The notes: generated by a model not told the origin, from the sequence alone. Counted from the stretch's first letter, positions 17,354-24,352 are shown. The stretch: 64,000 nt of DNA from an uncultured Gammaproteobacteria bacterium (GCA_964627245.1 CAZVGS010000003.1:47551-111550), one strand, 5' to 3'. Numbers and translations: made by a program.

Positions 17354-18652
17354 ATGAAAATAACATTTATAGGCCACGGATACGTTGGACTCGTTTCCGC
17401 GTCGATATTTGCAGATCTTGGTAACGAAGTAACTGTTATAGGACATACTCCCGAAACAGTGCATAAGTTAAATGAGGGGAAGGTCCATATATATGAACCC
17501 GGTCTTACCGAACTCGTACAAAAAAATCTTGATGCAAAAAGGTTAAAATTTACACTAGATTATAAATCGGTTAAAAATTCAGAATTGGTTTTTATCGGAG
17601 TAGGTACTCCTCCAAAAGAAAGCGGTGAAGCTGATCTCACGACAGTTTTGGAGGTGGCTGAGAATATTGCTAAAAACCTTTCAGGATATACGGTCGTTAT
17701 TACAAAAAGTACTGTTCCGATTGGAACAAATAAAAAAATTAAGAAGCTTATGTTGGAAATAGTTGATTCCAATGTAGAATTTGATGTTGCCTCTTGTCCG
17801 GAATTTTTACGTCAAGGATCTGCAATTTCTGACACCCTTTATCCAGACAGGATTGTAATTGGAACAGAAAAGAAAAAAGCAGAAGAACTTCTGGTACAGT
17901 TACATAAGCCTCTTCAGGAAAATACAAATTGCCAATTTGTTCTCTGCAACTTAGAAACTGCAGAAATGATAAAGTACGCTGCAAATTCTTTCTTGGCAAT
18001 GAAAATATCATTTGCAAACTCAATAGCTCAGCTTTCCGAATTGACGGGATCAGACGCTTTGAAAGTATTGGAGGGTATAGGCTTTGATAAGAGAATTGGA
18101 AATTATTTTCTTTCTCCAGGACCAGGGTATGGAGGTAGTTGTTTTCCAAAGGATGTTAAGGCGCTAATCTCAATAGCAAAAGATTTCGATTATGACTTTG
18201 AACTACTCAAAGAAGTTGAAAATGTAAATTATTTAGCGAAAAAACTCATTATTAAAAAAGCCGAAGAACTTTTGGGTAGTTTTGAAGGAAAAAAAGTTGG
18301 GGTTCTCGGGCTTTCCTTCAAACCAAATACTGATGATATGAGGTTTGCTCCTTCAATCGAAATTATAAACTGGTTAAAAGAGAAGGGTGTTGAAGTGAAG
18401 GCATACGATCCTCAATCGATGGAGAAGGCAAAGAAAATTATTGATGGAATTTCCTACTGTGAAGATTTATACGATGTAGCAAATGCAGCAGACTTACTTA
18501 TTGTTCTGACTGATTGGAATGAATTTAAAGAAATGGATCTTGAGAAAATCAAATCCTCAATGAAGTCACCATTCATCATTGATGCCAGAAATATATACGA
18601 GCCTGAAAAAATGAGGGGTCTAGGATTTTCTTATAGAGGAGTTGGAAGATAA
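17354..18652 (+). CDS. ugd: UDP-glucose 6-dehydrogenase (nucleotide-sugar dehydrogenase)
   Basis: N-terminal FIGHGYVGLVSASIFADLG, the catalytic Cys motif GGSCFPKD, and the C-terminal UDP-binding domain. Confidence 0.9.
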   Translation: MKITFIGHGYVGLVSASIFADLGNEVTVIGHTPETVHKLNEGKVHIYEPGLTELVQKNLDAKRLKFTLDYKSVKNSELVFIGVGTPPKESGEADLTTVLEVAENIAKNLSGYTVVITKSTVPIGTNKKIKKLMLEIVDSNVEFDVASCPEFLRQGSAISDTLYPDRIVIGTEKKKAEELLVQLHKPLQENTNCQFVLCNLETAEMIKYAANSFLAMKISFANSIAQLSELTGSDALKVLEGIGFDKRIGNYFLSPGPGYGGSCFPKDVKALISIAKDFDYDFELLKEVENVNYLAKKLIIKKAEELLGSFEGKKVGVLGLSFKPNTDDMRFAPSIEIINWLKEKGVEVKAYDPQSMEKAKKIIDGISYCEDLYDVANAADLLIVLTDWNEFKEMDLEKIKSSMKSPFIIDARNIYEPEKMRGLGFSYRGVGR

Positions 18653-19595
18653 GTTTATGCCAAAAGCACTTGTTACAGGAGTACATGGTTTTGCAGGAAC
18701 TCACCTAAACAATTTATTGCTTCAAAAAGATTACGAAGTATTTGGGATTATAAAACCTGAAAAGGACTTAAAGCTTGACGATCATTTTTTCGCTGTTGAT
18801 ATACAGGACTTTGAAGGAACAAAAAAGGTTATTGCTGATACGGCTCCTGATCATATATATCATTTAGCTGCTCTAACAAGTCCGGCAAGAAGTTTTCTAA
18901 ATCCATCAGAAACAGTAACTACCAATATTTCCGGTCAACTTAATATCCTAGAAGCCGTAAAACAATTAGGACTTCTTGAGACTAAAGTCCTTGTTGTTTC
19001 TTCAGCGGAAATTTATGGAGCAGCAGATGAAAATGACCTTCCGCTAAGCGAAAGTGCGCCGATAAAACCCCTATCTCCTTATGCTATAAGTAAAGTAGCG
19101 CAGGACTTTCTTGGATATCAGTATAAGCAGGCACATAATATTAAAACCGTGATTGTCAGGCCATTTAACAATATCGGTCCTCAGCAAGCGCCAATATTTG
19201 TAATCCCCGCATTTGCAAAACAAATTGCCGAGATAGAGAAAGGTATAAAAGAACCTGTTTTGAAAGTCGGAAATCTTGAATCCAGGCGAGATTTTACAGA
19301 TGTGAGGGATACGGTAAGAGCATACGAGCTATTGATGCAAAAGGGTGAGAGTGGAGAGGCATATAATATTGGATCCGGAAAATCCTACAAAATTAGTGAA
19401 ATTCTTGAGATGTTTTTATCCCTATCTGATAAAGAAATAGTAATTGAGAAAGATCCAGCACTCATGAGGCCCGGAGACATACCTGAGTTGAGGTGTGATT
19501 ATGACAAGCTTCACAAAGCAACAGGATGGAAGCCCGAAATTGATATTGAGAAATCACTTAAAGACACGCTGGACTATTGGAGAAATATCATTTAG
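18642..19595 (+). CDS. NAD-dependent epimerase/dehydratase, GDP-4-dehydro-6-deoxy-D-mannose reductase (Rmd)-like
   Basis: Motif ALVTGVHGFAGTHL and YAISKVAQD (YxxxK). Lies immediately upstream of gmd, suggesting a GDP-6-deoxyhexose product. Confidence 0.6.
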   Translation: MEDKFMPKALVTGVHGFAGTHLNNLLLQKDYEVFGIIKPEKDLKLDDHFFAVDIQDFEGTKKVIADTAPDHIYHLAALTSPARSFLNPSETVTTNISGQLNILEAVKQLGLLETKVLVVSSAEIYGAADENDLPLSESAPIKPLSPYAISKVAQDFLGYQYKQAHNIKTVIVRPFNNIGPQQAPIFVIPAFAKQIAEIEKGIKEPVLKVGNLESRRDFTDVRDTVRAYELLMQKGESGEAYNIGSGKSYKISEILEMFLSLSDKEIVIEKDPALMRPGDIPELRCDYDKLHKATGWKPEIDIEKSLKDTLDYWRNII

Positions 19596-19617
19596 AATGG
19601 TTAAATTATAACCTCTT

Positions 19618-22758: not shown

Positions 22759-22765
22759 GCTGACT

Positions 22766-24352
22766 ATGTTATCGCGAATAAAAAGCTACTTTCTCCAACA
22801 CAAAATTGAGCTTATATTAATTATTACAATTACCGTAGTTTCTGCATTTTTTAGACTTTATAAAATTTCAGATTATATGACTTTTTTAGGTGATGAAGGT
22901 AGAGATATGATTGTTGCAAAAGGAATCTTGGAAGGAGATTTTACATTGTTGGGCCCAAGAGCTTCTGCGGGAGACTTTTTTTTGGGTCCAATATATTACT
23001 ACATGATTGCGCCATTTCTTTTCCTGGCAAGACTCGACCCTGTCGGACCATCGGTAATGGTTGCACTTTTTGGTGTTGCTACGGTTTTGCTAGTATATTT
23101 TGCAGGGCTTAAATTATGTAATAGAAGAGCAGGTCTTATTGCAGCATCGTTATATTCAATTTCTCCCTTGGTTATAGCATATTCACGGTCTTCATGGAAC
23201 CCGAATCTTATGCCTTTCTTTTCTCTTCTTATATTATTTGTATTATATGAAGCGGTTAAAAGTCAGTCTGCCAGGTTATTTATAGCAATCGGTTTTTTAA
23301 TTGGGATAGCAATTCAGCTTCATTATCTTACTGTTTTTTTAGGAGTAATAGTACTCGTATATTTAATATTTGGAGAATTTATTAAAGAAAAAGAAAGAAT
23401 TTTTTTAAGGTACCTAGCTCACGGTTTTGAGATGTTGGGAGGATTCATTCTAGGTATTTCACCATTTCTTTTATTTGAGATAAGGCATGGTTTTCCGAAT
23501 GTATCAGCAATACTTAAATTCGTATTGACAGATAATGCAGCCGGGGGATATCCTCCTGGCCAGTCATTTCTCGGTAATATTTTTGATGTATTATTTAGAC
23601 TTTTTGGAAGACTTGTAACCAAATTTCCGCCCCCGGAGCAGGTCAATGTAACTGAGAATCTTGATCTCAGGATTTGGCAAATTGCGACAGTCATACTGGC
23701 TTTTTTCTCGATAATTGCAATCATCAAAATCAAGGATAAATTTACAAAACTCTTATTCACTCTCTGGCTGGTTCTTGGGGTTTTTCTTTTCGCATTCTAT
23801 AGGAAGCCTATATACGATTATTATTTAGGGTTTATTTTTCCTCTGCCATTTTTGCTCGTTGGGAGTTTATTGTCACAGACTTCAAAAATTAAAAAATATA
23901 AAGTTCTAAGCATAGGCATTTCAGTGTTAGTCTTCGTTTGTCTGCTTATCCTAAATTTGTCCGGGGCACCATTTCTTCATAAGGGCAACAAGCAGAAAGA
24001 TCAAGCAAAAAATATCGCAGAATTTATTATTTCAAAGACTGAGGGGAAGCCATACAATTTTGCCTTGCTAACAAGAGGTAACTCTGATCATGTCTATAGA
24101 TACTTTTTAGAAGTAGCAAATAAAGCTCCTATTACAATACTTAACGGAAACATAGATCCTCAAAGAGAAAGTGTAGCCGATCAATTAATAGTTGTTTGTG
24201 AATATGTCGAGTGTCAGCCGTTGGGAAATTCTCTTTGGGAAATAGCAGGGTTTGGTAGGGCAGAGATTGTTGGAGAGTGGGAAGTGCCCTTTGTTAAAAT
24301 ATTCAAACTGGTTCACTTCGAGAAGGAAGAGTCTAATATCCAAGAAAATTAA
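22766..24352 (+). CDS. GT-C fold glycosyltransferase, ArnT/PMT (GT83/GT39)-like, polyprenyl-phosphate-sugar dependent
   Basis: 528 aa with about 12 TM helices. A DE motif in the first extracytoplasmic loop (TFLGDEGRDMIV). Directly downstream of the GT2 synthase. Confidence 0.7.
   Translation: MLSRIKSYFLQHKIELILIITITVVSAFFRLYKISDYMTFLGDEGRDMIVAKGILEGDFTLLGPRASAGDFFLGPIYYYMIAPFLFLARLDPVGPSVMVALFGVATVLLVYFAGLKLCNRRAGLIAASLYSISPLVIAYSRSSWNPNLMPFFSLLILFVLYEAVKSQSARLFIAIGFLIGIAIQLHYLTVFLGVIVLVYLIFGEFIKEKERIFLRYLAHGFEMLGGFILGISPFLLFEIRHGFPNVSAILKFVLTDNAAGGYPPGQSFLGNIFDVLFRLFGRLVTKFPPPEQVNVTENLDLRIWQIATVILAFFSIIAIIKIKDKFTKLLFTLWLVLGVFLFAFYRKPIYDYYLGFIFPLPFLLVGSLLSQTSKIKKYKVLSIGISVLVFVCLLILNLSGAPFLHKGNKQKDQAKNIAEFIISKTEGKPYNFALLTRGNSDHVYRYFLEVANKAPITILNGNIDPQRESVADQLIVVCEYVECQPLGNSLWEIAGFGRAEIVGEWEVPFVKIFKLVHFEKEESNIQEN

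Follow-up and report, generated by a model that had tools for sequence, protein, structure and literature searches.

A predicted lipid-carrier GT2 and GT-C module at the end of a conserved nucleotide-sugar gene cluster of Levybacteria

Which sugar would a polyprenyl-phosphate glycosyltransferase and its neighbouring GT-C enzyme transfer, and to which acceptor, when several nucleotide-sugar pathways are encoded beside them? This question is raised by positions 17354-24352 of a stretch of 64,000 nucleotides (GCA_964627245.1, CAZVGS010000003.1:47551-111550), in the following called the window, whose public record is named uncultured Gammaproteobacteria bacterium. The original prediction, made from the sequence alone, described this span as an Arn-like module of four genes, namely Ugd, a UDP-glucuronate decarboxylase, a GT2/GtrA fusion and a GT-C, by which an organism of the Candidate Phyla Radiation (CPR) would transfer a pentose. 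All four genes were found on the plus strand. By the listing of open reading frames (ORFs) and profile searches, the span holds six co-directional plus strand genes: Ugd, an Rmd-like gene, Gmd, the decarboxylase (UDP-xylose synthase, UXS), GT2 and GT-C. The count of four had thus skipped Rmd-like and Gmd and ignored the rest of the cluster; because these two genes sit between them, Ugd and the decarboxylase do not adjoin each other. A larger nucleotide-sugar cluster starts with RmlA at position 12780, and the span forms its downstream end. The reading we prefer, with evenly balanced confidence, is that of a conserved Levybacteria envelope-glycan cluster ending in a lipid-carrier GT2 and GT-C module, with mannose as the most likely donor sugar.

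The GT2 polyprenyl-phosphate glycosyltransferase

The following features of GT2 were annotated:

21628..22758, plus strand: GT2, predicted glycosyltransferase of the dolichyl-phosphate mannose synthase (DPMS) type acting on polyprenyl phosphate, with a fused GtrA-like four-helix membrane domain (Pfam Glycos_transf_2, 78.8 bits; GtrA_DPMS_TM, 47.5 bits)
21916..21933, plus strand: DADFQF metal/diphosphate-binding motif, corresponding in the alignments to 89-DADLQH-94 of the P. furiosus DPMS (PfDPMS)
22375..22743, plus strand: GtrA/DPMS-type transmembrane domain, candidate flippase (Pfam: PF04138, amino acids 250-372; four long helices in the model)

The only PDB proteins matched by GT2 were PfDPMS (PDB: 5mlz, E 8e-35, with an alignment that begins at residue 1 and reaches the last membrane helices) and ArnC (E ~3e-11). 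Its catalytic domain shares 36.6% identity with PfDPMS, 38% with human DPM1 (NP_003850.1, E 5e-39) and 25.7% with ArnC, and the median identities of 73 Levybacterial orthologues are 37.6% to DPM1, 35.8% to PfDPMS and 26.6% to ArnC. DPM1 and PfDPMS share 39% identity with each other, and the window GT2 is nearly as close to either of them. The structure of GT2 was modelled with AlphaFold (AF2) at a predicted local distance difference test score (pLDDT) of 85.4, and the Foldseek matches of this model follow the order PfDPMS (E 5e-20, template modelling (TM) score 0.62-0.65), ArnC (E 2e-12) and GtrB (E 4e-10). All NCBIfam matches are below threshold, with 54 bits for a dolichyl-phosphate hexose transferase model and 50 bits each for ArnC, PpgS and AglJ. 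As the cutoff of the ArnC model (NF007986) is 529 bits, GT2 is not an ArnC orthologue. It had been described as DPM1/ArnC-like, of which the DPM1 part holds at 37-38% identity and the ArnC part does not at 26%.

In PfDPMS numbering, D39, G68, L69, D89, D91, R117, R131, S135, R202 and K208 are invariant in 78 GT2 orthologues and present in the window GT2. According to the PfDPMS structure, D39, G68 and L69 contact the nucleotide, D91 and Q93 the metal, R117, R131 and S135 the phosphate, and R202 and K208 belong to the A-loop (PMC5526996). The position of Q93, the second metal ligand, is Gln in the window GT2, and Gln in 52, Ser in 16, Phe in nine and Met in one of the orthologues. D39, G68 and L69 are guanine-contacting positions and they are conserved, but D39 and G68 are also found in ArnC. 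N77 of ArnC contacts UDP (PMC12690121); the equivalent residue is Lys or Arg in the window GT2 and its orthologues, and Lys in DPM1 as well. The local motifs KKGLGAAY and GYIFQ parallel KKLGLGTAY and GYVFQ of DPM1. Compared with the DPM1/DPMS/Ppm1 family, GT2 shares the catalytic-domain similarity, the DAD, the R117/R131/S135 and the R202/K208 residues, and departs from it at the His94 position. A lack of DXD residues had been named as a finding that would speak against the original prediction; the DAD is present at amino acids 97-99.

The fusion of a GtrA-like domain to GT2, also part of that prediction, is borne out by the Pfam match. Its possible role as a built-in flippase has a basis in a published proposal that the fused membrane domain of PfDPMS may flip the product (PMC12992685).

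The GT-C glycosyltransferase

Four features describe the second member of the pair:

22766..24352, plus strand: GT-C of 528 amino acids, PMT_2 family, ArnT-like in size and architecture (Pfam PMT_2, 48.8 bits; fold)
22883..22906, plus strand: FLGDEGRD motif of the first extracytoplasmic loop, whose D43-E44 are presumed to be catalytic (D43, E44, G45, R46 and D47 invariant in 94 homologues)
23180..23206, plus strand: YSRSSWNPN, second highly conserved loop motif of the GT-C family (S142 to N147 invariant)
23978..24325, plus strand: C-terminal soluble alpha/beta domain of GT-C, probably extracytoplasmic (secondary structure of the model; N439, S440, D441, C478 and C483 invariant)

Among the Pfam families, GT-C matches PMT_2 and neither PMT (Pfam: PF02366) nor PMT_4TMC, and it has no MIR domain. 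Its model, built from the 94 homologues, has a pLDDT of 91.2. In Foldseek ArnT ranks first (PDB: 5f15 and 5ezm, E ~1e-7, TM 0.58-0.61 in both normalisations), followed by STT3/AglB, ALG12 and Pmt4, and we are confident that the modelled fold is of the ArnT/PMT/STT3 kind. The layout, a membrane core with a small C-terminal domain and no MIR, is most like that of ArnT. The 528 amino acid GT-C with a DE loop is therefore as originally described. A polymerase or ligase was considered and rejected, as no Wzy- or WaaL-type protein is among the significant Foldseek matches; a grouping with polymerases or O-antigen ligases, which had been named as speaking against the original prediction, was thus not seen.

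Some orthologues of GT-C (P0002, P0004 and P0039, in loci L001-L003) are about 700 amino acids long and carry a C-terminal extension of about 180 amino acids, which may form an additional domain outside the membrane with a bearing on the choice of acceptor. As its one Pfam match is a weak one to PsbP_2, the extension gives no clue to what that acceptor is.

Further GT-C-like membrane proteins are encoded on the minus strand of the window at 40355-41776, 60817-62484 and 59097-60824, with 17-22% identity to the main GT-C. Two of them match Pfam PMT_2, one with 30.9 bits, above the cutoff of 26.1, and one, whose C-terminus also carries TPR repeats, with 23.5 bits, below it. The third lacks a Pfam match but aligns with the others. 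In this genome, several GT-Cs may draw on one lipid-sugar synthase.

Conservation and gene order of the cluster

GT-C has at least 2,800 homologues. We scanned a genome collection with YSRSSWNPN as the family-specific pattern, which gave 80 loci, nearly all of them in Levybacteria/Levyibacteriota metagenome-assembled genomes (MAGs). This upholds the CPR attribution of the original prediction. Many contigs with an unmistakable Levybacteria-type gene order (e.g. L001-L005) are titled 'uncultured Gammaproteobacteria bacterium' in public third party annotation MAG records, which is probably a labelling artefact.

By tblastn mapping of the window proteins, the order RmlA-(cupin)-RmlB-RmlD-Ugd-Rmd-Gmd-UXS-GT2-GT-C is shared by almost every locus with enough flanking sequence (about 70 Levybacteria loci), and metagenome contigs bearing GT2 homologues show the identical order. 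GT2 and GT-C overlap or nearly touch across about 73 loci, which is essentially all of them. In the window the cluster is tightly packed, with intergenic gaps of -11 to 144 nucleotides, of 2 nucleotides between UXS and GT2 and of 7 nucleotides between GT2 and GT-C. On the 3' side of GT-C the conserved order continues with DUF4446, DUF3048, a helix-turn-helix protein, SecD and SecF.

Just 5' of Ugd are RmlA, a small cupin, RmlB and an RmlD-like reductase. The genes upstream of the decarboxylase are:

12780..13502, plus strand: RmlA, glucose-1-phosphate thymidylyltransferase (TIGR01207, 321 bits; PDB: 4ho0, E 6e-86), which heads the cluster in related loci
13527..13967, plus strand: cupin of 146 amino acids, possibly a non-canonical RmlC or FdtA-like (Pfam Polysacc_synt_C; weak FdtA match)
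15272..16294, plus strand: RmlB, dTDP-glucose 4,6-dehydratase (TIGR01181, 471 bits, cutoff 365)
16375..17301, plus strand: RmlD-like dTDP-4-dehydrorhamnose reductase (Pfam RmlD_sub_bind, 157 bits; TIGR01214, 149 bits, under the cutoff of 224)
17354..18652, plus strand: Ugd, UDP-glucose 6-dehydrogenase (three UDPG_MGDP_dh domains; TIGR03026, 456 bits; TuaD model, 510 bits)
18642..19595, plus strand: Rmd-like GDP-6-deoxy-D-lyxo-4-hexulose reductase, which would make GDP-D-rhamnose (PDB: 2pk3, E 3e-74, 253 bits; 6x3b, E 4e-55)
19618..20595, plus strand: Gmd, GDP-mannose 4,6-dehydratase (TIGR01472, 439 bits, cutoff 415; Pfam GDP_Man_Dehyd, 450 bits)

By homology, these genes and UXS would supply dTDP-L-rhamnose, UDP-glucuronate, GDP-D-rhamnose and UDP-xylose, so that four nucleotide-sugar routes stand beside a single lipid-sugar synthase. 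The GGSCFPKD motif that had been reported for Ugd is located at amino acids 260-267 (18131-18154). The cupin is present in only some of the related loci, and in the PDB it matches only the cupin at the C-terminus of Cap5F (E 7e-5). Since it resembles this cupin and not a canonical RmlC, the cluster either encodes a non-canonical 3,5-epimerase for dTDP-L-rhamnose synthesis or has none. RmlA, with 240 amino acids, is short and aligns only to the first ~240 residues of the solved RmlA proteins of ~290 amino acids.

The decarboxylase and the Arn pathway

20669..21625, plus strand: UXS, UDP-glucuronate decarboxylase / UDP-xylose synthase of the UXS1 type (human UXS1; PDB: 2b69 and 4gll)

The decarboxylase matches human UXS1 over its full length (amino acids 3-315, E 1.5e-97, 330 bits). 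It is a single-domain short-chain dehydrogenase/reductase of 318 amino acids with the motifs STSEVYG, YDEAKR and RIFNTYGP. It scores 92 bits on the ArnA model (cutoff 777) and 99 bits on the model of the bifunctional UDP-4-keto-pentose/UDP-xylose synthase (cutoff 294). The original prediction had left the choice between a UXS-like and an ArnA-like enzyme; the former is what we find, and the single domain together with the two scores rules out the latter. By its similarity, the enzyme is expected to make UDP-xylose and not a precursor of 4-amino-4-deoxy-L-arabinose (Ara4N).

The window ORFs that were scanned include every one of at least 250 amino acids except two identified as SecD and SecF. 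Among these, no ArnB/DegT-type aminotransferase, formyltransferase, ArnD/polysaccharide deacetylase or ArnE/F was found, and no lpx genes were found in the 64 kb window. A true Arn pathway is rejected on these grounds, as an ArnA-like enzyme, ArnB, a formyltransferase and ArnD are all missing from the window and GT2 is not an ArnC orthologue. The label 'Arn-like' has to be dropped with it, GT2 being DPM1/DPMS-like rather than ArnC-like.

Which sugar is transferred

We rate mannose first on these grounds: GT2 has the sequence, motifs and fold of a GDP-mannose enzyme, the adjacency of UXS is dispensable in seven lineages, and GDP-mannose must be available in these cells, as it is the substrate of Gmd. 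Taken on its own, the proposal that GDP-mannose would be the donor of GT2 falls a little short of an even chance on this homology.

The arrangement of the genes would fit another sugar. The UXS gene, whose stop lies 2 nucleotides before GT2 in the window, is directly 5' of GT2 in 62 of the 71 related loci with enough flank, with a 4 nucleotide overlap in 25 of these. The neighbourhood of UXS and GT2 noted in the original prediction is thus a general one, and it fits a UDP-xylose donor. In this alternative, xylose from UDP-xylose, made by Ugd and UXS, would be loaded onto polyprenyl phosphate by GT2, and GT-C would move the xylopyranose to an envelope protein or polymer, which would be an undescribed pentosylation route. 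By its similarity to human UXS1 the UXS is a genuine UDP-xylose synthase, and no other glycosyltransferase able to use UDP-xylose was found among the scanned ORFs. Furthermore, the window GT2 has Phe at the sugar-contacting His94 position of DPMS.

However, genes are closely spaced throughout the cluster and belong to four sugar pathways, so adjacency is weak evidence which does not single xylose out. In seven loci (L018, L041, L043, L056, L057, L073 and L074) it is Gmd or Rmd that lies directly 5' of GT2, with no UXS in between. These loci keep Ugd, all GT2 catalytic residues and GT-C, and they fall in both GT2 sequence clusters; no link was seen between the presence of UXS and the GT2 subtype or its catalytic residues. 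Moreover, in its sequence, motifs and fold GT2 resembles DPM1/DPMS most and the UDP-sugar enzymes ArnC and GtrB least. We found no paper on a polyprenyl-phosphate-xylose donor derived from UDP-xylose, and the known lipid-linked xylofuranose donor derives from phosphoribosyl pyrophosphate. We therefore consider xylose somewhat unlikely. Adjacency had been the one argument for a pentose as the transferred sugar, and with GT2 and GT-C retained in the seven loci this part of the original prediction is not supported.

The same seven loci bring GDP-D-rhamnose into consideration, since Gmd or Rmd takes the place of UXS there. D-rhamnose is 6-deoxy-D-mannose and differs from mannose at C6 only, the nucleotide pocket of GT2 is DPMS-like and of the GDP type, and Gmd and the Rmd-like gene belong to the same conserved cluster. 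GT2 would then take GDP-D-rhamnose made by Gmd and Rmd, and GT-C would add D-rhamnose from polyprenyl-phosphate-D-rhamnose. This is adjacency evidence of the same kind as for xylose, though, and Gmd is divergent, on the opposite strand, in seven loci, which is no sign of a tight coupling. We know of no precedent for a polyprenyl-phosphate-D-rhamnose donor, and regard D-rhamnose as quite improbable.

A further sugar such as glucose, glucuronate or GlcNAc would place the module beside GtrB/GtrC, CsbB/YfhO, GacI/GacL and RgtE/RgtA-D, with side branches added to a wall polysaccharide or a teichoic-acid-like polymer. The weak, sub-threshold NCBIfam matches of GT2 are spread over several specificities, and the adjoining rhamnose genes recall the rhamnan side-chain systems of Gram-positive bacteria. 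In addition, Ugd is kept in the loci without UXS, so UDP-glucuronate has another use. By sequence and fold GT2 is clearly nearer to the mannose enzymes than to ArnC and GtrB, and on balance such a sugar is unlikely.

Besides the adjacency of UXS, several observations weigh against the reading we prefer, with mannose as the donor. His94 of PfDPMS forms a hydrogen bond to the O3 of mannose (PMC5526996), and this position is Phe in the window GT2 and in seven of the 78 orthologues, with His in the other 71; the donor of this lineage may therefore be a sugar other than mannose. The type-III DPMS has been defined by DADxQHPP, SRY and KIL together with the membrane-domain residues N248, N277 and F338 (Gandini et al. 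2026, PMC12992685). The window GT2 has DADFQFDS, TRY and GYIFQ, without KIL, and Asn at the positions of N248 and N277; among the 78 orthologues, the former is Asn in 38 and Gln in 40, and the latter is Asn in all. GT2 agrees with the published type in R117, R131, S135, N248 and N277, but as the HPP and KIL parts of this definition are lacking, it is a type-III-like relative and not a member of the type.

Some DPM1-like archaeal enzymes take UDP-sugars, so that an identity of about 38% does not fix the donor. No GDP-mannose pyrophosphorylase was found in the cluster. Finally, the sequence of GT-C finds nothing at E <= 1 among all PDB chains and no match in NCBIfam, and its fold scores do not tell lipid, protein and glycan acceptors apart.

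Combining two of the alternatives, we hold it possible, though doubtful, that in Levybacteria a DPMS-like GT2 was recruited for the synthesis of polyprenyl-phosphate xylopyranose or D-rhamnose, from which an ArnT-like GT-C would add the pentose or deoxyhexose to a protein of the surface or a polymer of the wall in a CPR bacterium without lipopolysaccharide. If this were true, the donor and transferase pair would be one without earlier description, and only then a new principle.

Proposed mechanism and acceptor

The general logic of the original prediction, in which GT2 charges polyprenyl phosphate, carries a fused GtrA-like domain and is followed by an adjacent GT-C that would use the lipid-linked sugar outside the membrane, fits the domains and folds. 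Homology suggests three steps. At the cytoplasmic face, GT2 would take a single sugar from its nucleotide donor, load it onto polyprenyl phosphate and invert the anomeric centre, using the DAD/Gln metal site and the Arg/Arg/Ser phosphate site common to dolichyl-phosphate mannose synthase. The lipid-linked sugar would then reach the outer face, possibly via the GtrA-like domain fused to GT2 itself. There, GT-C would use the lipid-linked sugar as its donor, with Asp43-Glu44 in the first outer loop as the catalytic centre, and decorate an extracytoplasmic acceptor. With mannose as the donor sugar, the GT2 and GT-C pair would be the counterpart of the actinobacterial Ppm1 and its polyprenyl-phosphate-mannose (PPM)-dependent GT-C.

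As the acceptor we would choose a surface or cell-wall glycan or glycoprotein and not lipid A. The sugars of the cluster (L-rhamnose, D-rhamnose, glucuronate and xylose) suggest a surface glycan or glycoprotein. CPR bacteria are not known to synthesise lipid A or lipopolysaccharide (LPS), which makes lipid A an unlikely acceptor.

Other features of the window

A protein with an LTD domain, which the original prediction had mentioned, is encoded at 9453-10295, and a secreted protein with a CAP domain at 11633-12526. Both are just upstream of the sugar cluster and are possible candidate targets of glycosylation. The CAP gene and the following small ORF of 85 amino acids recur upstream of RmlA in the related contig L081.

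A PNPOx-like gene (YhbP family, 14112-14567) and a LigT/2H-phosphoesterase-like gene (14587-15228) lie between the cupin and RmlB, and only a few close relatives (L001 and L004) share them.

The downstream neighbours of GT-C are:

24683..26357, plus strand: DUF4446 and DUF3048 genes (Pfam), conserved 3' of GT-C in most loci, sometimes past insertions of up to ~10 kb

Between GT-C and DUF4446 there is an ORF of 109 amino acids on the minus strand (24333-24662), which overlaps the stop of GT-C by 20 nucleotides and has a basic N-terminus and a hydrophobic C-terminal tail. It is 27-54% identical to sequences in L001-L005, L019 and L026 and is called as a gene of 106 amino acids in metagenome contigs.

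The region 44000-49800 has a lower GC content, a reversed strand bias and several ORFs without family matches, and may be the remnant of an integrated element. A recombinase fragment is found at 48397-49209, with Recombinase and zinc-ribbon domains; its catalytic domain was not detected.

Significance

CPR bacteria are uncultured or host-dependent and the chemistry of their envelopes is almost unstudied. We found no relevant paper on GT-C or DPMS systems of CPR bacteria or Levybacteria. The cluster is part of a gene order conserved in the whole phylum, with four nucleotide-sugar pathways beside a lipid-carrier glycosylation pair, and for this reason its product is probably a core glycan or glycoprotein of the Levybacteria surface, which could matter for host attachment and phage recognition. 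The module itself, a polyprenyl-phosphate-sugar synthase with a GT-C, is of a well-known type, and its mechanism, a lipid-linked monosaccharide used by a GT-C, is textbook knowledge; the gain would be in naming the sugar and the acceptor and not in a new principle. Furthermore, mesophilic bacteria have full-length relatives of the single-chain 'type-III' DPMS architecture, which was recently reported from hyperthermophilic archaea only.

Comparison with known systems

The Arn pathway, which adds L-Ara4N to lipid A, shares with the window the order Ugd, UDP-glucuronate decarboxylase, polyprenyl-phosphate GT2 and GT-C, and this outline is all that is shared. ArnT, the top Foldseek match, is the nearest relative of the window GT-C in size and architecture. 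In contrast, ArnA is a two-domain protein with a formyltransferase and an oxidative decarboxylase that releases UDP-4-keto-pentose, whereas the window enzyme is a single-domain one of the UXS1 type, and GT2, about 26% identical to ArnC, has a four-helix GtrA-like domain where ArnC has two helices.

The type-III DPMS of P. furiosus (PDB: 5mlz) combines in a single chain a GT-A catalytic domain with interface helices and a GtrA-like four-helix membrane domain, as does GT2. The two match over their full length (32% identity over 344 amino acids) in addition to the fold similarity, and the window GT2 has the N248 and N277 residues that are assigned to the proposed flipping pocket. They differ in the DADxQHPP and KIL motifs, and in their hosts, since type III was found by its authors only in hyperthermophilic archaea (PMC12992685) and the host of the window is a mesophilic CPR bacterium. 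The lipid acceptor of GT2 is presumably bacterial polyprenyl phosphate and not dolichyl phosphate.

Three-component systems combine a synthase of polyprenyl-phosphate sugars with a translocator of the GtrA family and a GT-C that acts after export (PMC11127046). The window likewise encodes a synthase, a GtrA-family component and a GT-C together, as do GtrA/GtrB/GtrC, CsbB/GtcA/YfhO and GacI/GacK/GacL. In the window, however, synthase and translocator form one protein, the synthase resembles DPMS rather than GtrB, GtrB being the weakest match of the three solved relatives, and the module stands in the conserved core gene order of a phylum and not in a phage-borne or serotype-variable locus.

A precedent for lipid-linked mannose used by PPM-dependent GT-Cs is Ppm1/Pmt in Actinobacteria (PMC5882110). 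These enzymes, and DPMS with PMT in eukaryotes and archaea, follow the same logic as the GT2 and GT-C module. In contrast to their GT-Cs, the window GT-C matches only PMT_2 in Pfam and has no MIR domain, and its GT2 has Phe in place of the His94 of the DPMSs. Unlike in Ppm1/Pmt, the genes of the two enzymes are adjacent in the window and are set within a nucleotide-sugar cluster.

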